Of a stretch of DNA of 48,858 nucleotides, positions 1,625 through 17,274 are shown piece by piece. The DNA comes from Planctomycetota bacterium (GTDB taxonomy: Bacteria > Planctomycetota > UBA11346). A model generated the notes under the pieces. It was given only the letters and a program-made list of their open reading frames with translations, was not told the origin of the DNA and ran no database searches. The stretch's first letter is position 1, and the number at the start of each line of letters is the position of its first letter. The position numbers and the translations under genes were made by a program. Location: the NCBI GenBank assembly GCA_007693455.1, contig REDP01000237.1, positions 1 through 48,858 on the forward strand. The letters are read 5' to 3'.

Positions 1625-2473
1625 TTAGGCACTCCCCTCGCGCAGCATGCGCTGCCAGGCCCGCGGACCATGCCCCGTTTGACGTTGAAACCAATGACTA
1701 AACGCGCTGGCATTGGCGGCATGCACGGCTCGTGCAACCTCCTTAATGCTCCATGAGCCATTACGCAGCAGGGCACAGGCCCGCTCGCGGGCTCGCGCCG
1801 TATTCCATTCGGTAACACTCATACCCGTGGCTGACAGGGCAAGGCGGTCCAACTGGCGTCGAGAGCAGCCCGCGAGCTGCTCCAAGCCAGACCACTCCAA
1901 CGACCCACAGCACGGATCAGCACTAAGCTTAGCTAAAACCCGAGCCAAACGGGGATCCACCCCCCGAAATCCGTCCCAACGCCAGGCCGGCAGAGTCTGC
2001 ACCACAGCCATAATCTGCGCCATGCTCGCCACCGCCTGCCACACCTGGGCTGCAGACAACAGATCCTCAAAGAGTGGCTGCATGGATTCCGCCGAAAGCA
2101 TCTGCGGCTCATCGCCGATAACTGCAGGCAAACCATCATCTCGCTGCAGCTCTAAAGCCAGGGAATCCAATTCGGCTTCGGCACTAAAGTGCTGATCCCG
2201 CGCACAGCCCGGAGGGAGAGCTACCCAGCTGCCCCGATGAAGGTGCCTGTCCCCTTTTGATCGGAGGTGGAGGTGGCCTTGGCGGATGCCCCAGATGGTG
2301 AGGAGGTCGTCGCGGTAGTTGCGGCGCTGGCCGCTGGCGGGGACGGGGCCGCGATAGATACGACGGCATACGATCTGCCATGGCGCCACCGAGAAGCATG
2401 CTCCCGTTGCCCCCGCAATGTTCTTGGCAGCGCCGCCAGCGGGGTTATGAGGAGTGCTCTGGGGACTGGGCAT
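1625..2473 (-). CDS. AraC-family transcriptional regulator
   Basis: N-terminal cupin-like region; C-terminal double HTH (LEQLAGCSRRQLDRL...SIKEVARAVHAANASAFSHWFQRQTGHGPRAWQ); start uncertain. Confidence 0.88.
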   Translation of the reverse strand: MPSPQSTPHNPAGGAAKNIAGATGACFSVAPWQIVCRRIYRGPVPASGQRRNYRDDLLTIWGIRQGHLHLRSKGDRHLHRGSWVALPPGCARDQHFSAEAELDSLALELQRDDGLPAVIGDEPQMLSAESMQPLFEDLLSAAQVWQAVASMAQIMAVVQTLPAWRWDGFRGVDPRLARVLAKLSADPCCGSLEWSGLEQLAGCSRRQLDRLALSATGMSVTEWNTARARERACALLRNGSWSIKEVARAVHAANASAFSHWFQRQTGHGPRAWQRMLREGSA

Positions 2474-2555
2474 ATGTCGCTATATAACAACTTTTGTCAA
2501 CTTTAAAAGGGTAATATGTCGTGCTTATACATTTTTGTCGGCTAAGCTCTACGGC

Positions 2556-5447
2556 ATGAAAACAACGCTCGCTCTTGCCGATTCCGTGGATGTTCTGGTC
2601 CTTGGTGGATCTTTTGCCGCTACCGCATGCGCCATTGCCGCTGCCCAAGCTGGCCAGCGTGTACTGCTTGCCGCGCCGCGCACGGGGCTTGGCGATGACG
2701 CCTGGGCTCATCTCCGGCTGGATTGTCCCCACCCTGAGCACGATCCCCTCTGTGCTGCGGTATTTGCTGAGGACGGGGTGGCGCGTCCCCTCCAGATTAA
2801 GGCGCGCCTGGAACAGATGGCCTTGGAAGCAGGCGTTGATCTGCTCTATCAGGCGCTGCCCTGTGGCTGCCTGTACGATGACCAGGATGCCGTATGCGGA
2901 GCCATTCTCGCCACGCGCTCTGGGCGTGCTGGTATTGCTGCGCGAAACGTGGTTGATGCCAGTCACACCGGCGTCTTTGCACGGCAGGCAGGGGTTCCCT
3001 TTGCGCCCTGGCCAGAACAACCCGTAACAGTGGAGCGCCGGCTTTTGGGCGCCATTCCCGATGGCGGCCACGCGGTACTTGAGCACCTCCTGCCTGCCCC
3101 TGCCGCAACCAATGATACCCCTGGCGAGGCGGTGCCGCTCACCATTGGCGCTCGCACTCTTTCCCTGTCTTTGGGCGATGGCTCTCCCTTGGCGCTGGCG
3201 GCGGCCGAAGCTGAGGCCCGCGAGCGTTGTTTTCATGCCGACCAGCAGGGCAGAAGTGAGAGCATCTGGTTTGTCCCTCCTGCGGGCTGCCAAGCAGGCA
3301 CCAACATTGGGGATGAATGGCAGCATGCCACTGAGATCTCTCCCGATGCAATACACGTAAGCCCACGCATCTGGCTGCTAAGTCCCAGTTGTAAAACCGC
3401 ACGCAGCAGTGCCGAGCGCCTTATGCAGCTGCCCCATGCGGCGGCCTGGGGGCGCCATGTGGGCAACCACCTGCAGCACACCAGTGCTTCCCCGGTGCAG
3501 CCGGTCCAAGCCGGATTGCGTGGTGGCTCTGGGCCTGGATCGTCGCAGATTCGGGGCGCCTGCCTGGGTCTACGGGGCTTTGATCAGGGCCTCCCACGCC
3601 TGCCCCTGGATGATAGCGCCCTGCCAGTTCTGGGCGAGAGTGATGTACTGGTGGCGGGTGGGGGCACTGGTGGCGCTCCGGCTGCAATCAGTGCAGCCCG
3701 CGCTGGCGCACGCACGCTCGTCCTTGAACAGCAATACGCCCTCGGGGGCGTCGGCACCGTTGGCCGCATTGCCCGCTATTGGCACGGCAACCGTGTGGGC
3801 TTTACCGCCGAATTGGATGACTTGGTTGACTCCTTCGCTGGCCCATCTCCCTACCCCAAGAACAAAGGTGCCTGGTGGTCTGTGGAATGGAAACAGGCCG
3901 CTTTACTGCAACAGCTCAGGGCTGCTGGCGGCGAGGTCTGTTTTCATGCCACCATCGTTGCCGCCGTCTGTTCGGGCAATGTGGTGCATGGAGCCTTAGT
4001 AGCCACCCCCTGGGGGAGCGGCCTCATCACCTGTCAGCAGGCCGTGGACGCCACTGGCAATGCCGATTTAGCAGCGGCAGCAGGAGCTGCTTGTCGGGTT
4101 ATCGGCAAGGATCATGTGGCGGTTCAGGGAACTGGGCTATCGCCCTGGCAACCTGGTGCTGACTATAGCAATAGTGATCACGATTTTTGTGATGATTGTG
4201 ATGCCCGCGATATCACCCGTCTCCACATTAACGCCCGCGCTAAATTCCTCGATGCCTGGGATTCGGCCCCTTTGGTGGACTCGCGGCAGCGACGGCAGAT
4301 TATTGGCGGCTGTGAACTCGGGCCATTGGATATCCTGTGTGATCGCCAGGTCCCCGATGCAGTGGTTCGGGCTTCCTCCAATTTTGATAGCCACGGCTTT
4401 ACTATTCACCCTGCCTTTTTGGTACAACCACCGAATAAACGTAAACTTTGGGCCTGGATCCCCTATCGCTCGCTCATCCCCCAAGACATAGATGGGGTTA
4501 TTGTTACAGGCCTGGGAATGAGTGCCCACCGCGATGCCCTACCAGTAGTCCGCATGCAGGCCGATGTACAAAATGCTGGCTATGCCGCTGGCTTGGCCTG
4601 CGCCCGCGCCATTAACGAACGCGCCACCCTGCGCACCCTTGATGTACGTGGCCTGCAAGAACAGCTTGTAGCCAAAGGCAATCTGCCGCCCGATGTGCTC
4701 ACCATGGAAGATGACTTCCCGCTTGCCGCCGAGACCCTGCAACGCCTGGTGGAAGAAGAGCTCAACGAGCACCGTGGCATCGCCGCCTGCTTTGCCCACC
4801 CCGATGAAACGCGGCCGCATCTCCTGCGCGCGTTATCCGACCCCAATCGCCAGCATGTGGCGGCAATGATTTTGGGTCTCCTTGGCGAAGCCGCTGCCGC
4901 ACCCATCCTTCTGGCCGATCTGCAGGCAGCTGAAGCCTGGGACGAGGGCTGGCATTTCCGTGGCATGCATCAATTCGGCATGAGCATGAGTCAAATGGAT
5001 GCCGCCCTAGTAGCGCTCGCCCTCTGTGGCTCAGCGGATGAAAGCGCATCGCTCTTATGTCACCTGGCAGGGCAGCTCCAGGCCACTAGCCCCTTCTCCC
5101 ATCATCGTGCAGTCGCCTGGGCAGCAGCAGTCATGGCGCAACGTCATCCCCAGCATCGCCAGACCGTCGCGCAAGCCCTGGCGCGCATCGTAACCCTCAA
5201 CGGGGTCAGCGGCCACGCCCGCCACGAGATCATCGATCTGAACCGGGAGAGTAATACCGACATCAATGACAATAGTATTCGCGAACGCTGTCTCATTGAG
5301 CTGCATCTGGCAGTGGGCCTGTGGCGCTGCGGTGACTGGGAACAACTGGGAGAAGGCATTCTTAAGGCCTACGCCAATGATCTGCGTGGGCATTATGCCC
5401 GCCATGCCCGCGCGGTTCTGGCAGAACATACCACCAACGCGGCCTGA
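2556..5447 (+). CDS. Tandem two-domain FAD-dependent oxidoreductase (FAD_oxidored-like) with C-terminal HEAT-like helical region
   Basis: DVLVLGGSFAA...VVDAS in domain 1; DVLVAGGGTGG, LEQQYALGG and VDATGNADLA in domain 2; helical repeats at the C-terminus; ATG 2556 preferred over 2454. Confidence 0.85.
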   Translation: MKTTLALADSVDVLVLGGSFAATACAIAAAQAGQRVLLAAPRTGLGDDAWAHLRLDCPHPEHDPLCAAVFAEDGVARPLQIKARLEQMALEAGVDLLYQALPCGCLYDDQDAVCGAILATRSGRAGIAARNVVDASHTGVFARQAGVPFAPWPEQPVTVERRLLGAIPDGGHAVLEHLLPAPAATNDTPGEAVPLTIGARTLSLSLGDGSPLALAAAEAEARERCFHADQQGRSESIWFVPPAGCQAGTNIGDEWQHATEISPDAIHVSPRIWLLSPSCKTARSSAERLMQLPHAAAWGRHVGNHLQHTSASPVQPVQAGLRGGSGPGSSQIRGACLGLRGFDQGLPRLPLDDSALPVLGESDVLVAGGGTGGAPAAISAARAGARTLVLEQQYALGGVGTVGRIARYWHGNRVGFTAELDDLVDSFAGPSPYPKNKGAWWSVEWKQAALLQQLRAAGGEVCFHATIVAAVCSGNVVHGALVATPWGSGLITCQQAVDATGNADLAAAAGAACRVIGKDHVAVQGTGLSPWQPGADYSNSDHDFCDDCDARDITRLHINARAKFLDAWDSAPLVDSRQRRQIIGGCELGPLDILCDRQVPDAVVRASSNFDSHGFTIHPAFLVQPPNKRKLWAWIPYRSLIPQDIDGVIVTGLGMSAHRDALPVVRMQADVQNAGYAAGLACARAINERATLRTLDVRGLQEQLVAKGNLPPDVLTMEDDFPLAAETLQRLVEEELNEHRGIAACFAHPDETRPHLLRALSDPNRQHVAAMILGLLGEAAAAPILLADLQAAEAWDEGWHFRGMHQFGMSMSQMDAALVALALCGSADESASLLCHLAGQLQATSPFSHHRAVAWAAAVMAQRHPQHRQTVAQALARIVTLNGVSGHARHEIIDLNRESNTDINDNSIRERCLIELHLAVGLWRCGDWEQLGEGILKAYANDLRGHYARHARAVLAEHTTNAA

Positions 5448-6874: not shown

Positions 6875-7386
6875 AACACTGCACCCGTACTCGACGGCGG
6901 CCAGTGACCATGTTGACGCATCCACGACTCCAACACCTCTGCCACCACCCCCTGACCTGCGGAATAGCGAGAGACCTGATGGGCACGGCGCAAAATACGT
7001 GGGTCGGCATCGGCGGGGGCAACAAAGCAACCCACATGGCCGATCAGCTCTCGATCGGGCTCATCATCGCCCACCATGCAGATCTGCGACATGCTCACGC
7101 CGGAATCAGCACACCACGCTTGTAAGCAGGCCACTTTATCCGCCACCCCAAAAAACAGGGGCGAGAGCCCGAGATCGGTCACACGGCACTGCAATGGTGC
7201 CGACTCACGGCCACTGCAAACCCCCACAACTAAACCCGCGCGCCGCGCCGCCACCATGCGGTGACCATCACGCACATGAAAAGGCTTGAGGCTTTCCCCC
7301 TGGGGCCCATACCACATCAAGGATGAGCTCCAGCTTCCATCCACATCACAGATCACAGCACGAATCGAAGAAGGTATCTGCAGCAT
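6871..7386 (-). CDS. kdsC: KdsC-family HAD phosphatase (KDO-8-phosphate phosphatase)
   Basis: DVDG, KPFHVRDG, SGRES, DK and VGDDEPD motifs. Confidence 0.8.
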   Translation of the reverse strand: MLQIPSSIRAVICDVDGSWSSSLMWYGPQGESLKPFHVRDGHRMVAARRAGLVVGVCSGRESAPLQCRVTDLGLSPLFFGVADKVACLQAWCADSGVSMSQICMVGDDEPDRELIGHVGCFVAPADADPRILRRAHQVSRYSAGQGVVAEVLESWMRQHGHWPPSSTGAVL

Positions 7387-7569
7387 AGAGTTGATAATGA
7401 GCAGGGGCACTGGCGTACAAGCAGCAGCCGCAAAGAAGTCGCCCTGCACATCCTCATACATGGCAATAGGCTCGTGACAGGGCGGCACTTGACCACATGG
7501 CAAGGACAACCACACTCTCTCCCTTCCCTTCATGCCCTGCTCAACCTTTTTCCGAGCCGAGGAGTCACC

Positions 7570-7812
7570 GTGAGCGACATCCGCAACAAAATCATCGACA
7601 TTATCGCCGAACGCCTGTCCAAAGAAAAGGACAGCATTACCGATGACAGCAACGTCATCGCCGATCTGGGCGCCGACAGCCTTGATATCGCCGAAATTAT
7701 GATGGACCTTGAAGACGCCTTCGGCATCAAGCTAGAAGAAGACAACGACAGTCTCAAGACCATCGGCGACATTATCTCCTACATCGACCAGAAAGTAGCC
7801 GAGAATGGCTGA
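7570..7812 (+). CDS. acpP: Acyl carrier protein
   Basis: DLGADSLDIAEIMMDLEDAFGI; GGAG RBS at 7561-7564; GTG start. Confidence 0.95.
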   Translation: MSDIRNKIIDIIAERLSKEKDSITDDSNVIADLGADSLDIAEIMMDLEDAFGIKLEEDNDSLKTIGDIISYIDQKVAENG

Positions 7813-9076
7813 AGCGCGTCATGGGCGTCGGGTGGTAATTACTGCCACTGGCGCCCTTGCTAGCAATGGCAGCGATAGCGCCTCCTACTGGCAGGCGCTA
7901 CTGGCTGGCACCAGCGGCATTGGCCCGATCACCCAATTCGATCACAGCAACCACGGCACCCACTTCGCGGGTGAAGTCAAGCTTAGCGATGGGGAATTGG
8001 CCGAAGCCTTTGGTGGGGATGCCAAAACAGCTCGCCGAAAAGATCGGTTTGTCCTGCTGGTACTCAAGGCCGCACACGAAGCCATGCAGGCATCGGGCCT
8101 TGATTACCGCAATTGGGCTGATCCTTTCCGCGTGGGTGTGATTGTAGGTGCTGGCATTGGTGGACTCAAAACCATCGAAGGCGAAGTCGCGGTACTCAAC
8201 GACCGTGGCCCACGCCGCGTCAGCCCTTTCCTTGTGCCAAAGATGATTGTCGACAGTGCTGCTGGCGATATTTCCATCACTTACGGCGCCAAGGGACCAA
8301 ACTTTTGCATCACCACTGCCTGTGCCACTGCGACCCATTGCATTGGCGCAGCTTTTCAGCATATCCGCAGTGGCATCTGTGATGTTATGATAACCGGTGG
8401 CTGCGAAGCCCCGATTAGCCCTCTCGGGGTTGCTGGATTTAATAGCATCAAGGCGCTTTCCACCCGCAATGACAGTCCTGAAACCGCCTCGCGTCCCTTT
8501 GACGCAGAGCGCGATGGCTTTGTTATTGCCGAAGGTGCCGGCGTGTTGATTCTTGAAGAGTACGAACACGCCAAACGTCGTGGTGCGGACATTGTTGGTG
8601 AGATCGTGGGCTACGCCTGTACGGGCGATGGCTTCCATGAAACAGCACCCGATCCTGAAGGGGTCGCCGGCGCAGCCGCCATGCGCCTTGCCATTGAAGA
8701 TGCCGGCATTGCTCCCGAGGAGATTGGCTACTTCAATGCCCATGGCACATCGACCAAGCTCAACGATGCTACCGAGACCGTTATCCTCAAAAAAGTATTC
8801 GCTGAGCACGCCTATAAACTGGCCATCTCCAGTACCAAAAGCATGACCGGCCACACCCTGGGCGCAGCAGGAGCGGTAGAAGGCGTAGCCACTGCACTCA
8901 GCCTGCGCCATGGCATTATCCACCCAACGATTAACTACCAAACCCCTGATCCTGACTGTGATTTGGACTACGTCCCTAATCAGGCGCGGGAACTGCAGGT
9001 GGAATATGCCCTGTCCAACAACCTGGGCTTCGGTGGCCACAATGCCTGCCTTGTGTTCAAACGCTTTCATGGCTGA
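7805..9076 (+). CDS. fabF: 3-oxoacyl-ACP synthase II
   Basis: TACAT catalytic Cys, NAHGTST, SSTKSMTGHTLGAAG, GFGGHN; follows acpP. Confidence 0.96.
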   Translation: MAEARHGRRVVITATGALASNGSDSASYWQALLAGTSGIGPITQFDHSNHGTHFAGEVKLSDGELAEAFGGDAKTARRKDRFVLLVLKAAHEAMQASGLDYRNWADPFRVGVIVGAGIGGLKTIEGEVAVLNDRGPRRVSPFLVPKMIVDSAAGDISITYGAKGPNFCITTACATATHCIGAAFQHIRSGICDVMITGGCEAPISPLGVAGFNSIKALSTRNDSPETASRPFDAERDGFVIAEGAGVLILEEYEHAKRRGADIVGEIVGYACTGDGFHETAPDPEGVAGAAAMRLAIEDAGIAPEEIGYFNAHGTSTKLNDATETVILKKVFAEHAYKLAISSTKSMTGHTLGAAGAVEGVATALSLRHGIIHPTINYQTPDPDCDLDYVPNQARELQVEYALSNNLGFGGHNACLVFKRFHG

Positions 9077-9123
9077 TTGACTCAGCCAGTTGCACCCCTT
9101 TTTTCTTCCGCAGGTATAACTCC

Positions 9124-9405
9124 ATGGATCGTAAACGCGTTGCCGATGAGGTCATTGAACTACTGTGTGCAAAACTGCTCACCCTGCCACTACCCGTTGA
9201 TGATCCAGATTTCGACTACGAAGGCCAGCAACTGTGCCCCGATATTACGGACAACGAACTTGATATCGCCGAAGTAGCCATGGACCTTGAAGACGCCTTT
9301 GATATTCAATTCAAAGGCACCCTGCCTGGCGGAGAAGAGCTCCCCACCATCGGCGATGTCATTACCTTTATCTACGACCGAGTGAACAGCCCCGACGCTG
9401 TGTAA
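9124..9405 (+). CDS. ACP-like protein lacking the phosphopantetheinylation serine
   Basis: TDNELDIAEVAMDLEDAFDI aligns with acpP GADSLDIAEIMMDLEDAFGI; PTIGDVITFI aligns with KTIGDIISYI. Confidence 0.8.
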   Translation: MDRKRVADEVIELLCAKLLTLPLPVDDPDFDYEGQQLCPDITDNELDIAEVAMDLEDAFDIQFKGTLPGGEELPTIGDVITFIYDRVNSPDAV

Positions 9406-9652
9406 ACGATCGTGCCCTAAGGGCCCCGCACCATACGCGGCAGACGCTCGCGCTTACGCACCAGGGCAACTCAAAGCTCACCTTGGAATTTACGACACCA
9501 TTCCTGCCATGATCTGGCGCGGATTGCGGCCCGCGAGGAGTGCAACCGACATAGCCGGAGCGCCCTTTCACGGCACGTTTTGCATCACTTTGGCTCGGGT
9601 CCAACCCGCAAGCCGGGGCTTGGCTTTGCCGGGCACGATCTACACTACCTCC

Positions 9653-12106
9653 ATGAATGATTTCTCCCAAGAACACGGCCCCTCCAATGGTAATGCTGGG
9701 GACTACGATGCCGAATCGATCAAAGTCCTTGAAGGCATGGAAGCGGTGCGTAAACGCCCAGGTATGTATATCGGCGACCCCTCTACTACGGGGCTGTACC
9801 AATGCATTTGGGAGGCAGTAGACAACTCCATTGATGAGGCTATGGCCGGTTTTTGTGATCGAGTCGTGATCACCATCCATGCTGATAATTCTATCTCCGT
9901 GGCGGATAATGGTCGTGGTATCCCAGTTACTGCCCACTCCTCTTCCGGCAAGCCTACCTTGGAAGTAGTGCTCACAGTGCTCCACGCTGGCGGCAAATTT
10001 GAGAACAATGCCTATAAAGTTTCTGGTGGACTGCATGGGGTAGGGGTGAGCTGCGTAAATGGGGTGAGCCAGTGGATGACGGCAGAAGTGCGCCGTGATG
10101 GTCGTAAATGGCGCATGCGCTTTGAGCGTGGCCATACCGTTGGTCAGCTTGAAGACTGCGGCCCCTGCGACGAGCGCGGAACCACCATTCACTTTAAACC
10201 CGATCATGAAATTTTTGAAGACAACACCATTGTCAACTATGACACCGTTGCCAGCCGCCTACGCGAGCTCTCCTTCCTTAATCGCGGGGTGCGCATTACC
10301 CTGGACGACGAGCGCGAAGAAGGCCGTGCCGAAGTATTCTATCACGCCGATGGTTTAGCAGGCTTTGTCAAATACCTGGATCGCGGCAAGGAGGCCATTC
10401 ACCCCAAGGTCATCCATTTTGAACATATCACTGATGACGGCGTTAACGTTGAAGTCGCCATGGAATATAACGATAGCTACGATGACCGTTGGCTGGCCTT
10501 TGCCAACAATATCCGCAATCGTGATGGCGGCACCCACGTAGAAGGTTTCCGCACCGCACTCACCCGCGTATTCAATACCTATGCCAAAACTAATAAGCTC
10601 CTCAAGGGCGACCGCGCTCCTACCGGTGATGACCTCCGCGAAGGACTCACCGCAATCATTTCGGTAAAACTCCCTGATCCAAAATTTAGCGGGCAAACCA
10701 AAGATAAGCTGATCAATTCTGAGATATCGGGCTTGGTACAAACCGCCGTTACTCAACATTTAGGTGACTATCTCGAAGAAAATCCTCGGGTCGCCAAAGG
10801 CATTATCAATAAAGCGGTTCTCGCCCAGGTGGCACGTGATGCCGCCCGCAAAGCGCGCGAACTGGCACGCAAAGACCGTAAGGGCCTACTGGGCGCATCC
10901 AATATGCCAGACAAACTACGTGACTGTCAAACGCGAGATGTCAATGAAAGTGAGATTTTCCTGGTAGAAGGTGACTCCGCCGGTGGCTCTGCCAAACAGG
11001 GATCGGATCAATACTTCCAGGCCATTCTGCCCCTTAAAGGCAAAATTATTAATGTCGAAAAAGCTCGCATTGATAAAGTGCTCTCGCATACAGAAATTAG
11101 CGCAATGATCCAGGCCCTCGGTGTAGGCATTGGCGAGGAACTCAATCCTGCCGGTCTGCGGTATGGCAAAATAATTATTATGACCGACGCCGACGTGGAC
11201 GGCTCTCATATTCGCACCCTGCTCTTAACCTTTTTCTTCCGGCAAATGCTGCCGCTGATTGAAAATGGTAATGTCTATGTGGCCCAACCACCACTGTTCA
11301 AAGTTACGCGTGGTCGCGCATCCGAGTACGTGTACAATGAAAAGACTCTGGCCACAGAGATCAAGCGTCTGGGCATTGAATCCTGCCATCTCATTGATCG
11401 TCACCTGGGCATGGAGCGGGAGGTGAAGGGTCCAGCCTTGGTAACCCTTATCGAATGCCTTGATGCCTTTGACGAACATGAACGCGTGCTTGCACTTAAA
11501 GGGCTTACCCTGGAGGAATATCTGGGCCTGCGCAATGCCGAGGACATTCTGCCCTTATATCGGGTTATTTTGGGCGAACACGATCGCTTCTGCTACAACG
11601 ACAACGAGCTTGATGCCATCACCCGCGAACACCCAGAACTCTTTATGTCGGATCAAGACGATGCCGGCGAGCGTGCCTCAGCGGAAATTGTTGAGTTCAC
11701 CGAGCGCGAGGACATCGAGCGCAGCCTCGATCAATTGCGCATGCTTGGGGCCAATCCCAGCTACCTCTTTGACGATAGCGCTGAACGGGTTGATCCCTTT
11801 GTGGTACGCGGTAACAAAAATGAGGTGACCCTTACCTGTCTGCGTGATATTCCAGCAGTGGTCAAAGATTTTGGCGCCAAGCAACTTACTGGCCTAACTC
11901 GCTATAAAGGTCTTGGTGAAATGAACCCCGATCAACTGTGGGAAACCACAATGGATCCTGACCGACGGCGCCTGAAAAAAGTCACCCTTTCCGATGCCCT
12001 GGAAGCAGAGCGCATGTTCTCCACCCTTATGGGTTCTGATGTGGCTGTCCGCCGTGACTTTATCGAGCGTTTTGCCTTAAGCGTGGCCAAGAAGCTTGAT
12101 GTCTAG
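9653..12106 (+). CDS. gyrB: DNA gyrase subunit B
   Basis: YDAESIKVLEGMEAVRKRPGMYIG, DNGRGIP, SGGLHGVGVS, VEGDSAGGSAKQG, IMTDADVDG, RYKGLGEMNPDQLWETTM; includes the TOPRIM insertion. Confidence 0.97.
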   Translation: MNDFSQEHGPSNGNAGDYDAESIKVLEGMEAVRKRPGMYIGDPSTTGLYQCIWEAVDNSIDEAMAGFCDRVVITIHADNSISVADNGRGIPVTAHSSSGKPTLEVVLTVLHAGGKFENNAYKVSGGLHGVGVSCVNGVSQWMTAEVRRDGRKWRMRFERGHTVGQLEDCGPCDERGTTIHFKPDHEIFEDNTIVNYDTVASRLRELSFLNRGVRITLDDEREEGRAEVFYHADGLAGFVKYLDRGKEAIHPKVIHFEHITDDGVNVEVAMEYNDSYDDRWLAFANNIRNRDGGTHVEGFRTALTRVFNTYAKTNKLLKGDRAPTGDDLREGLTAIISVKLPDPKFSGQTKDKLINSEISGLVQTAVTQHLGDYLEENPRVAKGIINKAVLAQVARDAARKARELARKDRKGLLGASNMPDKLRDCQTRDVNESEIFLVEGDSAGGSAKQGSDQYFQAILPLKGKIINVEKARIDKVLSHTEISAMIQALGVGIGEELNPAGLRYGKIIIMTDADVDGSHIRTLLLTFFFRQMLPLIENGNVYVAQPPLFKVTRGRASEYVYNEKTLATEIKRLGIESCHLIDRHLGMEREVKGPALVTLIECLDAFDEHERVLALKGLTLEEYLGLRNAEDILPLYRVILGEHDRFCYNDNELDAITREHPELFMSDQDDAGERASAEIVEFTEREDIERSLDQLRMLGANPSYLFDDSAERVDPFVVRGNKNEVTLTCLRDIPAVVKDFGAKQLTGLTRYKGLGEMNPDQLWETTMDPDRRRLKKVTLSDALEAERMFSTLMGSDVAVRRDFIERFALSVAKKLDV

Positions 12107-14819: not shown

Positions 14820-15416
14820 ATGAGCTCGCAACCCAATTCATCCATCGCCCATGGCCTTGGCCTCCTCGCCCATATCGCCCTGGCGGGGAAGGCCGTAGGC
14901 TGTCGGCCACTGGCGCGCGAGGTGGGCATGAATGCCGTGCGCTGCAATCGTCTGCTGAAAAGCTTGGCTATGGCAGGCTACCTTGAACAAGATCAGCGCC
15001 GCCGCTACCGCCCAGGCCCAGCCTTTCAGGTGTTGGCGGCCGCAGCGCTCCATGGTTCGCCATTACTGCGTCAGGGCACGCCGCTCCTGCAGAAATTGGC
15101 GCTGGAAAGCGGATACACCGTAGCCCTGGGAATAGTTTGGGATACACGCGTGGTGTATCTGTGGCATGGGGGACAAGTCGGGGCCAGTGCACCCTACCCC
15201 GCAGAAGACTCCTCCATTGGCCGTCTTTTTGCCGACCCCAGCGCCCAGTCGGCAAGCGTCATTCATCACAACCATCGCTCACTGGCGGTGCCTCTTCCCG
15301 ACTCCAGCGCGATGGGCCTGGCTCTGACCCATATCCCCCTGGACGCAGCCCTTCCACCCCTGCGCCACCTTCTGCATCAATACGCCAAACGTTTCAGTGA
15401 GCTCAACCATGAATGA
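14820..15416 (+). CDS. IclR-family transcriptional regulator (short)
   Basis: NSSIAHGLGLL...LAREVGMNAVRCNRLLKSLAMAGYLEQD...RYRPGP; TVALGI..VVYL; SSIGR. Confidence 0.85.
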   Translation: MSSQPNSSIAHGLGLLAHIALAGKAVGCRPLAREVGMNAVRCNRLLKSLAMAGYLEQDQRRRYRPGPAFQVLAAAALHGSPLLRQGTPLLQKLALESGYTVALGIVWDTRVVYLWHGGQVGASAPYPAEDSSIGRLFADPSAQSASVIHHNHRSLAVPLPDSSAMGLALTHIPLDAALPPLRHLLHQYAKRFSELNHE

Positions 15417-17274
15417 ATCCCTCCGCTGCACCAGTGAACAGATCAGTGAAAACGCCTTTCCCCATGAACAGCATGACGCCGATGTCTGTGTGGTTGGCGG
15501 GGGCATGGCTGGCATCTGCGCCGCCTTGGCGGCGGCACGGGCCGGAGCGCGCACCGTTTTAATTCAGGATCGTTCCATGCTGGGCGGGAATGCCTCATCA
15601 GAAATCCGTATGTGGATCTGTGGGGCGCATGGACCCGATTACAAAGAGGGGGGGATTCTTGAGGAATTGCAATTAGCCAACATTCTTCACAACCCTGGCT
15701 TACAGTATTCCCTTTGGGACGCGGTGCTCTACGATGCAGTGCGTCGCTGCGATGGCCTACAGACCATCCTCTCGTGCACCGTATGCGGGGTTGCTATGGA
15801 CCAGGGCCGTCTGCAGTCCGTGCGCGCCTGGCACCTGACCCGCCAGTGCTGGATTACCGTTACCGCCCAGCAGTTTATCGACTGCTCGGGCGATAGCGTA
15901 CTGCGTGCAAGTGGGGCAGCCATGCGTCGGGGACGAGAGGGACGCGATGAATTTCAGGAAAGCCTTGCCCCCGAAAAGGCCGATCGCCAGACCATGGGGA
16001 ACTCTATTCTTTTGCAACTGCGCCGCAGTAACCCATCCCATCACCGCCCCTTTCGCGCCCCGCCCTGGGCTCGTGAGATTGCCCCCGATCATCCACGCTA
16101 TGCTCATCTTACCCCCAGTGGACATAATTTTTGGTGGCTCGAACTGGGTGGCCAGGACGATACCGTTGGCCAAGCCGATGCCATCCGCGATGAACTTATG
16201 GCCCTGGCCTTGGGAGTGTGGGCCACCATAAAAAATCATCCTGATGGGCGTGGCCATGGCTGGAAACTGGAATGGGTAGGAAGCCTCCCGGGCAAACGTG
16301 AGAGCTTTCGCTATGTGGGTGCTCATACCCTCACCGAGCACGAAGTGGCCAGTGGTGGCAATTTTCCCGATCGCATTGCCTACGGCGGCTGGAGCATGGA
16401 CGACCACCCCCCTGGCGGCTTTGATCATCGCGGCGACCCCACCCAATTCCATGCCGCCCCATCCCCTTACGGCATCCCTGCGGGAATCCTCTATAGTAGT
16501 CAGGTGCCCAATCTGTGGTGCGCCGGACGCAATATAAGCGCAACCCATATGGCCCTCTCCAGCACCCGCGTCATGGCCACCTGTGCCATGCTGGGACAGG
16601 CCGCTGGCAATGGCGCCGCCTTGGCGGTAGCGGCCGCATGTGATGCCGCCGAGGTTCATACCAAGCAGCTCCATCGCTGGCAAAATATCCTTATGGACAG
16701 CGATCAGTGGCTTCCAGGGTTTACCAAAGCCTTGCCTGGGCTCACCCAAACAGCCCAACTCTCCAGCAGTGCTTCTGATGAGTGCGAAGTCCTGCGCGAC
16801 GGCATCGAACGCCGCCTTGATGGCCATCGCCATGCCCTCGACTGCCAAGCAGGCGACTGGGTGGAGTTACGCTGGGATAGCCCCCAGGACCTGCAGCGCC
16901 TGCGCGTGGTGGGGGACAGTCAACTTCATCGCCCCAAGCGTATGCCTTGCTCGCGGCCCGATGACGATCATCACGAGGCCATGCCTGCCCCCCTCTGGCG
17001 TCATGCTCGTATTTGCATCCAGGAAGATCCGCAAGGGTCATGGCATACCATAGCCGAGATCTGCGATAATAGCCAGCGCTGCCGTATCGTTCCCCTGCGC
17101 AGGCGTGCCTGCGCCCTGCGCTTTCACATCCTTGCTGGGTGGACTGAAGAGGGACCCATACGCCTGCATGCTTTAGAAGTAGGCGAGCCAGACTGGGACC
17201 AGGCACCCCAGCCCTGCCCCTGGCCAGAGCCCTTCTACCAGCACGGCAAGCCAGGACGGGGACCAGCAGCCTAA
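15409..17274 (+). CDS. FAD-dependent oxidoreductase (FAD_oxidored-like) with C-terminal beta-sandwich domain
   Basis: DVCVVGGGMAGICAA, LGGNASSEIR, FIDCSGD, LPGKRES, GGWSMDDH, AGRNISATHMALSSTRVMATC; overlaps the IclR gene end. Confidence 0.9.
   Translation: MNESLRCTSEQISENAFPHEQHDADVCVVGGGMAGICAALAAARAGARTVLIQDRSMLGGNASSEIRMWICGAHGPDYKEGGILEELQLANILHNPGLQYSLWDAVLYDAVRRCDGLQTILSCTVCGVAMDQGRLQSVRAWHLTRQCWITVTAQQFIDCSGDSVLRASGAAMRRGREGRDEFQESLAPEKADRQTMGNSILLQLRRSNPSHHRPFRAPPWAREIAPDHPRYAHLTPSGHNFWWLELGGQDDTVGQADAIRDELMALALGVWATIKNHPDGRGHGWKLEWVGSLPGKRESFRYVGAHTLTEHEVASGGNFPDRIAYGGWSMDDHPPGGFDHRGDPTQFHAAPSPYGIPAGILYSSQVPNLWCAGRNISATHMALSSTRVMATCAMLGQAAGNGAALAVAAACDAAEVHTKQLHRWQNILMDSDQWLPGFTKALPGLTQTAQLSSSASDECEVLRDGIERRLDGHRHALDCQAGDWVELRWDSPQDLQRLRVVGDSQLHRPKRMPCSRPDDDHHEAMPAPLWRHARICIQEDPQGSWHTIAEICDNSQRCRIVPLRRRACALRFHILAGWTEEGPIRLHALEVGEPDWDQAPQPCPWPEPFYQHGKPGRGPAA

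Follow-up and report, generated by a model that had tools for sequence, protein, structure and literature searches.

An acyl carrier protein (ACP) is defined by its prosthetic arm, and the Ser of its D-S-L motif is the site at which 4'-phosphopantetheine is attached. The DNA analyzed here, a stretch of 48,858 nucleotides from a Planctomycetota bacterium (the window), encodes directly after acpP and fabF a small protein that resembles the neighboring AcpP and has Glu where that Ser should be. We call this protein pACP. The locus raises the question of what such a gene is: an error or a relic, a carrier that works through another residue, or an ACP-like protein with some purpose other than carrying.

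The locus and its FAS II setting

The AcpP of the window exceeds the cut-offs of both PF00550 (45.9 bits, cut-off 20.8) and TIGR00517 (71.7 bits, cut-off 70.45), and its FabF, at 571.9 bits against a TIGR03150 cut-off of 493.75, is a full KAS II. The fabF start codon at 7805 precedes the end of acpP at 7812, an overlap of 8 nt, and pACP follows fabF at a distance of 47 nt (Table 1). The pACP frame runs through its 93 codons without an internal stop in translation. BLASTP aligns pACP with AcpP at 42% identity over 53 aa (E 1e-11), a resemblance far beyond chance, and sets the site stretches TDNELDIAEVAMDLEDAF and GADSLDIAEIMMDLEDAF of the two proteins opposite each other. This alignment and the codons themselves agree with an earlier, sequence-only reading of the window, which had described an intact frame with Glu in place of the AcpP Ser. 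The single Ser near the C-terminus and the two Cys that it mentioned were also located, the Ser as S89 in an unconserved tail and the Cys as C15 and C38.

Table 1. Positions in the window of the acpP-fabF-pACP trio and of the pACP and AcpP residues discussed in the text
Feature	Position	Strand	Details
acpP, genuine acyl carrier protein	7570-7812	+	80 aa, GTG start
Ser37 of the AcpP DSL motif	7678-7680	+	codon AGC, read directly
fabF, beta-ketoacyl-ACP synthase II	7805-9076	+	423 aa
pACP, AcpP paralogue without the Ser	9124-9405	+	93 aa
pACP Thr42, where the AcpP G-x-D-S motif has Gly	9247-9249	+	codon ACG
pACP Glu45, equivalent of the AcpP phosphopantetheine Ser	9256-9258	+	codon GAA, read directly and by alignment
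pACP helix II, residues 46-59, LDIAEVAMDLEDAF, ACP recognition helix	9259-9300	+	

pACP stays below the thresholds of the curated ACP models. Pfam gives no match to it up to E 1, and it scores 28.9 bits against the best NCBIfam ACP model (cut-off 66) and 23.7 bits against TIGR00517 (cut-off 70.45). Its net charge is -17 versus -13 for AcpP. DNA contigs from run X1 span the stretch with pACP unchanged; X1 is possibly the source sample and hence not independent.

In the window's genome, AcpP is the only PF00550 match, one AcpS-type transferase is encoded at C67:24501-24851, and FabH is present. FabF Cys173, His313, and His350 are invariant in 20/20 class sequences. The FAS II of this genome looks complete and ordinary. 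With one true ACP, an AcpS-type transferase, FabH, and the FabF triad all in place, pACP adds to FAS II and replaces nothing. A missing FabH as the cause of an odd FabF partner was ruled out, as FabH occurs in 46 of the 48 genomes of the class. In a comparison with a small outgroup of five FabF sequences from other families, the FabF of the class shows 32 near-invariant class-specific positions, among them Lys79 in an ARRKDRF segment (Ile, Val, or Leu in the other families) and an inserted Trp104.

The neighbors beyond the trio include a HAD hydrolase, GyrB, and a ferrochelatase, with no more lipid genes among them. An ordinary and unrelated pair lies at 147-1456, where the gene for an ECF-type sigma factor (Sigma70_r2/r4) overlaps by 4 nt the downstream gene for a zf-HC2 anti-sigma protein. 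Two FAD_oxidored (PF12831) proteins are encoded at 2454-5447 and 15397-17274; the former is unusually long, with a longest frame of 997 aa and three matched stretches.

Distribution, gene order, and constraint

A word-indexed search returned 61 pACP homologues of 88 to 121 aa at 50-90% identity, and a profile search yielded 298 clusters at E up to 1e-8, the best 120 of which, each scoring at least 147 bits, were inspected. The family is compact, as an exhaustive search of 50%-identity representatives yielded no more than 14 clusters up to E 1e-3. Where organisms are named they are Planctomycetota MAGs, and the source names are "hypothetical protein" or "acyl carrier protein"; none of the homologues carries a precomputed Pfam domain in the family search listings.

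Our sample of the phylum comprised 401 genomes, and the window's class was represented by 48 genomes, all of one family. Within the phylum sample, matches at E 1.1e-30 or better were confined to the window's family, in G000 and 21 of the 23 others. No pACP was found in the 377 other sampled Planctomycetota genomes, where the best match reached E 2.2e-12, and the five weaker matches that we inspected (L027, L029, L030, L032, and L033) are genuine AcpP with DSLD. In the class, pACP occurs in 45 of 48 genomes, in all 18 genera, and in 7/7 high-quality genomes. The three negatives fit incomplete assembly: G318 is 81% complete and its AcpP match is missing too, acpP lies at a contig end in G100, and G407 is 62% complete. 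pACP is thus a clean single-gene marker for an uncultured planctomycete class.

The order acpP-fabF-pACP on one strand recurs in 19 of 20 class loci, so that the synteny with fabF that the sequence-only reading proposed to look for is present; the twentieth locus ends at a contig edge inside fabF. Among 36 metagenome pACP loci, FabF lies directly upstream in 32 of the 33 with at least 60 nt of room, the sole exception (L064) having room of only 327 nt, and AcpP lies farther upstream in 19/19 with at least 1700 nt of room. The distance from the fabF stop to the pACP start, measured in 15 of 21 loci, is 98, 124, 36, 129, 60, 6, 11, 9, 12, 22, 13, 11, 4, -4, and 47 nt; it is at most 22 nt in nine of the 15, including one 4-nt overlap. 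From the acpP stop to the conserved FabF start, the relatives have 2 to 138 nt. Outside the trio the flanks vary between loci, and no fourth gene is universal, the downstream neighbors falling into 49 clusters over 41 loci; gyrB follows pACP in the window only (0/20 class loci). A search for fused forms of pACP covered 555 candidates of 164-2000 aa and found none up to E 1e-6, which is weak evidence.

Two downstream arrangements recur in subclades. In 13 of the 41 loci with downstream room (L039, L040, L042, L043, L046, L050, L053, L071, L073, L081, L087, L089, and L101), the next same-strand gene belongs to one cluster, at a gap of -3 to 176 nt. The three members scanned (L071, L081, and L087) match PF01135 at E 2e-44 to 4e-52, which makes them protein-L-isoaspartate O-methyltransferases. 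The 13 loci all belong to a subclade whose pACP has N-H (in one case N-P) at the former D-S site, and the methyltransferase gene of the window's genome lies elsewhere (C322). This adjacency may be a clade-specific gene order, or it may relate to an Asn before the site that is prone to isoaspartate formation. In seven of the 41 loci (L034, L059, L060, L067, L078, L080, and L084), all of a K-D-P subclade, pACP is followed by a convergent ORF of 462-528 aa. Those of L059 and L060 were scanned and encode class-III aminotransferases (PF00202, E 4e-83 and 2e-86), which appear to resemble BioA.

In an unrooted tree, pACP (support 100/100), the AcpP of the class (84/86), and the AcpP of other families (96/96) form separate groups. 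Five pairs that are close or sister in the pACP part (L041/L043, L040/L042, L035/L037, L048/L053, and L039/L047) are so in the AcpP part too, where L041/L043 and L035/L037 are identical rows, as expected from vertical co-inheritance. pACP has a single origin in or before the class ancestor, followed by vertical inheritance within the trio; as the tree is unrooted, it is silent on whether pACP stems from the class's own AcpP. The derived form of helix II in the AcpP of the class, LDIAEIMMDLEDAFG, seen in the window and class loci L034-L053, is found in pACP too, and the pACP N-terminus (MDRKRI..EVIEILC.KL) resembles other-family AcpP, represented by L030: MDRKEIEAKVIDIICDQL. This mixed likeness suggests gene conversion or common partner constraints.

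Selection on pACP was estimated by pairwise NG86 for 20 genes (19 class loci and the window), with 21 of the 190 pairs saturated. Each of the 169 usable pairs gives a dN/dS below 1, with a median of 0.28 and values of 0.04-0.2 in the closest pairs; the AcpP median is 0.15. Median dN is 0.277 for pACP versus 0.161 for AcpP, an approximately twofold faster evolution of pACP. In a same-genus genome, 69 of 90 residues are identical to those of the window's pACP, at a dN/dS of 0.10 with dS saturated. Change is spread unevenly along the pACP genes, with a median pN of 0.13 in helix II, 0.26 in the N-terminal part, and 0.34 in the C-terminal part. pACP is a real gene under purifying selection, not an error or a product of decay.

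The residues held constant lie both within and outside the recognition helix, selection having kept helix I and a loop and turn peculiar to the family as well as helix II. Invariant in 62/62 aligned members are, in helix II, L46, D47, A49, E50, M53, E56, D57, and F59, and outside it, M1, R5, E9, K17, L18, L21, P22, T42, F63, P68, and G69. The acidic recognition helix is thus kept, as the earlier reading had stated, with D47, E50, E56, and D57 never varying. Of the NELD motif that the same reading proposed to look for in homologues, L46 and D47 are invariant, and the Glu is present in 10 of 130 parsed members. The helix is identical to that of the window's AcpP at 12 of 15 positions (LDIAE..MDLEDAF.), including all the acidic residues common to the two. 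Class AcpP and pACP have a common helix II, LDIAE[IV].MDLEDAFG, and AcpP from five other planctomycete families reads ...AEL.MEFEDEFD. The longer Pro- and Asp-rich loop between helices I and II is also present and conserved across the family; it exceeds loop I of AcpP by about 10 residues, is rich in Pro and acidic residues, and carries a conserved FDYE..Q.L.PDIT. An F63...L-P68-G69 turn occupies the place of AcpP helix III, and the C-terminal tail is variable.

The former Ser site, the predicted fold, and possible roles

We surveyed the former Ser site in 133 family proteins, 130 parsed by pattern and three by eye, and none has Ser there. Of the 130 parsed members, 57 have Pro, 41 have His, 10 Glu, 8 Gln, 7 Asp, and 3 Asn, with a single case each of Lys, Arg, Thr, and Ala; the proteins read by eye have Pro, His, and His. 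The 36 metagenome loci have Pro in 18, His in 17, Gln in one, and Ser in none, and farther members, at 43-49% identity, likewise have no Ser at the site. To judge from these sequences, the site residue is free to vary, indeed hypervariable, with Glu a variant of one clade, and pACP is evidently barred from bearing phosphopantetheine on the canonical Ser. Ser is wholly absent from 16 of the 133 proteins and Cys from 65. Because the site is variable and Cys dispensable, neither Glu nor Cys is a conserved attachment point and a negative charge is not needed, which disposes of the earlier suggestion of a carrier using Glu or Cys chemistry.

The sole conserved nucleophile of the family is Thr42, present in 62/62 aligned and 130/130 parsed members. 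We suspect that it caps the helix. The preference for Pro, His, Glu, Gln, and Asp at the site, together with a T42-x-N/D44-x pattern, would suit the first turn of a helix, and we infer that the former Ser site simply forms the first turn of helix II.

An AF2 model built from the family alignment (pLDDT 92.4, pTM 0.83) has helices at residues 3-17, 37-41, 45-59, and 76-88; a helix III (residues 60-75) is not predicted in it. Among the matches listed by Foldseek against the PDB, all are ACPs save rank 46, a designed epitope scaffold, with target-normalized TM up to 0.83. They include ACP subunits of mitochondrial complex I and of mitoribosome assembly, which match no better than free bacterial ACPs. 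All 31 rows of a search with the pACP profile against PDB sequences are ACPs, and the ESM Atlas gave nothing but ACP-like clusters. We can therefore predict confidently that pACP adopts the ACP fold.

We propose that pACP is a non-carrier mimic of ACP and that, by docking on an ACP-client enzyme, it acts as a regulatory or structural subunit, a proposal that we give about an even chance of being right. Helix II, the most constrained part of pACP and closely matched to that of the cell's AcpP, would dock on the basic ACP-binding patch of such an enzyme, and the docked pACP would occupy the patch and deliver no substrate. FabF would be the prime candidate partner because its adjacency is invariant and the coupling of fabF to pACP frequently tight, and about half of the weight that we place on docking goes to it. 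More tentatively, and doubtful in our own estimate, pACP might be a stoichiometric pseudo-substrate subunit of KAS II that gates acyl-ACP or malonyl-ACP at one site of the FabF dimer; it would be translated in a coupled manner with FabF, and the inert pACP would set flux or chain length. To serve FAS II as a decoy, as a regulator, or as a structural partner, as suggested from the sequence at the outset, is still a plausible role for an intact and selected gene beside acpP-fabF, but the part of that suggestion that relied on the charge of Glu is not.

Several considerations count against docking. Gene adjacency by itself is weak evidence of a physical partner. By analogy with the reviewed toxicity of apo-ACP in Escherichia coli (PMC3896788), a general apo-ACP mimic expressed from the acpP operon would be expected to do harm, so that a specific partner or low expression must be assumed. 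The longer loop I and the absence of a predicted helix III may change or block canonical docking, pACP changes at about twice the rate of AcpP, and the invariant Thr42 is given only a presumed structural role. A complex prediction for the FabF dimer with pACP gave scores of 0.19 and 0.02, where the mark was 0.32, had no controls, and speaks neither for nor against binding. The single metatranscriptome run of the same study (X5) has 0 reads over the whole of 7000-10500 and is thus no test of pACP expression.

The main competitor to docking on a FAS II enzyme is that pACP serves as a phosphopantetheine (Ppant)-independent scaffold for a non-fatty-acid partner, its position after fabF reflecting only its origin by duplication. 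An essential, Ppant-free ACP that acts only as a binding partner has been described (PMC8547962), and the family-specific loop and turn could make a second, non-FAS interface; the Foldseek matches to complex I and mitoribosome-assembly ACPs and the lack of lipid genes downstream of pACP also lean this way. We nevertheless think a scaffold unlikely. The trio order is fixed over 18 genera despite changing flanks, with tight coupling to fabF, whereas an unlinked gene would be expected to drift off; helix II hardly differs from the one in the FAS AcpP; and no candidate partner emerged, nor, as weak evidence, a fused form.

Other explanations fare considerably worse. Could pACP still be a carrier, through Thr42, which precedes the former Ser site by three residues? 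The complete conservation of this residue, its location in the turn from loop to helix II that also holds the canonical site, and the AcpS-type transferase of the genome are in keeping with that idea, but T-x-x-E/D/Q/P appears to match an ordinary helix-capping pattern, Cys and Ser are dispensable in the family, and pACP falls under every curated ACP model threshold. No phosphopantetheinyl transferase is known to us to act on Thr or at a position three residues away from the usual one, and we judge a Thr42 carrier very improbable. Harder still to credit is that Glu45 mimics the charge of the Ser phosphodiester, so that pACP imitates holo-ACP. Glu is found in the window and its closest relatives, including the same-genus genome, and Glu and Asp account for 10 and 7 of the 130 parsed members, but Pro or His stands at the site in 98 of the 130, and Gln, Asn, Lys, Arg, Thr, and Ala occur there too; with such a majority, negative charge is unnecessary for the function of the family, and the earlier idea of a Glu imitating the phosphoester is contradicted. 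Finally, a sequencing error in a Ser codon or a dead, neutrally evolving acpP duplicate was possible a priori, and nothing more than that favors it. The sequence-only reading had named Ser in orthologues and neutral evolution as the signs of such an artefact or decay, and neither was seen. An intact, Ser-less gene in 45 of the 48 genomes of the class and at 36 independent metagenome loci, dN/dS below 1 in every usable pair, and a fully supported clade whose branching partly mirrors that of AcpP reduce its probability to almost nil.

Comparison with known ACPs

ACPs also serve as structural subunits in Fe-S assembly, complex I, and mitoribosome assembly modules. Compared with AcpP (PF00550; TIGR00517), pACP is likewise small and very acidic, has in its model helices I, II, and IV and a short loop helix, shares the helix II motif LD.AE..M.LED.F, and is encoded in an acpP-fabF operon. 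It differs in that no member has the DSL Ser, with T-x-N/D-x standing for G-x-D-S, in a loop I longer by about 10 residues, in the conserved F...LPG turn in place of helix III, and in scores under all curated ACP thresholds. The sequence argues against phosphopantetheinylation and carriage of an acyl thioester. With the predicted ACP fold and helix II, but with neither the Ser nor a score above threshold, pACP is probably best not labeled an acyl carrier protein in annotation; some sources give its homologues that label although they are, by the same argument, unable to carry.

A search of a collection of full-text papers readable without subscription turned up no account of a Ser-less ACP paralogue beside fabF in bacteria. 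A physical basis for the mimic or decoy idea may be seen in E. coli apo-ACP, which, according to a review (PMC3896788), lacks the arm, still binds and blocks client enzymes, and stops growth when it accumulates. Apo-ACP as described there is a transient biosynthetic intermediate, whereas pACP is the product of a dedicated, conserved gene with a loop and turn of its own.

The class-wide retention of an arm-less ACP implies that in bacteria, too, the ACP fold and helix II can be selected for what they do by themselves; experimentally, such a function has so far been shown only for the Ppant-less mitochondrial ACP of malaria parasites (PMC8547962). Binding to FabF or to some other FAS II enzyme would make pACP a natural regulator of fatty acid synthesis at the protein level, a probe of how clients recognize ACP without acyl-Ppant, and a template for protein or peptide inhibitors of condensing enzymes. 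Should it prove to be a pseudo-substrate, pACP would be the first bacterial ACP retained purely for binding to other proteins, and a naturally occurring protein that inhibits or modulates a condensing enzyme.

By analogy, the nearest precedent for pACP would be the mitochondrial ACP of Plasmodium falciparum, which is Ppant-less and is essential as a binding partner of Isd11-Nfs1 (PMC8547962). In both cases the Ppant group has been lost and the protein retained under selection, with a binding role that is so far only proposed for pACP. The Plasmodium protein is eukaryotic and organellar and is the only ACP of a compartment that has lost FAS II (PMC8547962); its LYR partner is Isd11, with Nfs1. 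pACP, in contrast, is bacterial, has a canonical AcpP two genes away and a complete FAS II alongside, and is not the sole ACP of a genome that encodes AcpP, FabF, FabH, and AcpS. The two would represent independent losses, and the likeness between them, which is that of ACPs in general, is one of analogy rather than common descent.
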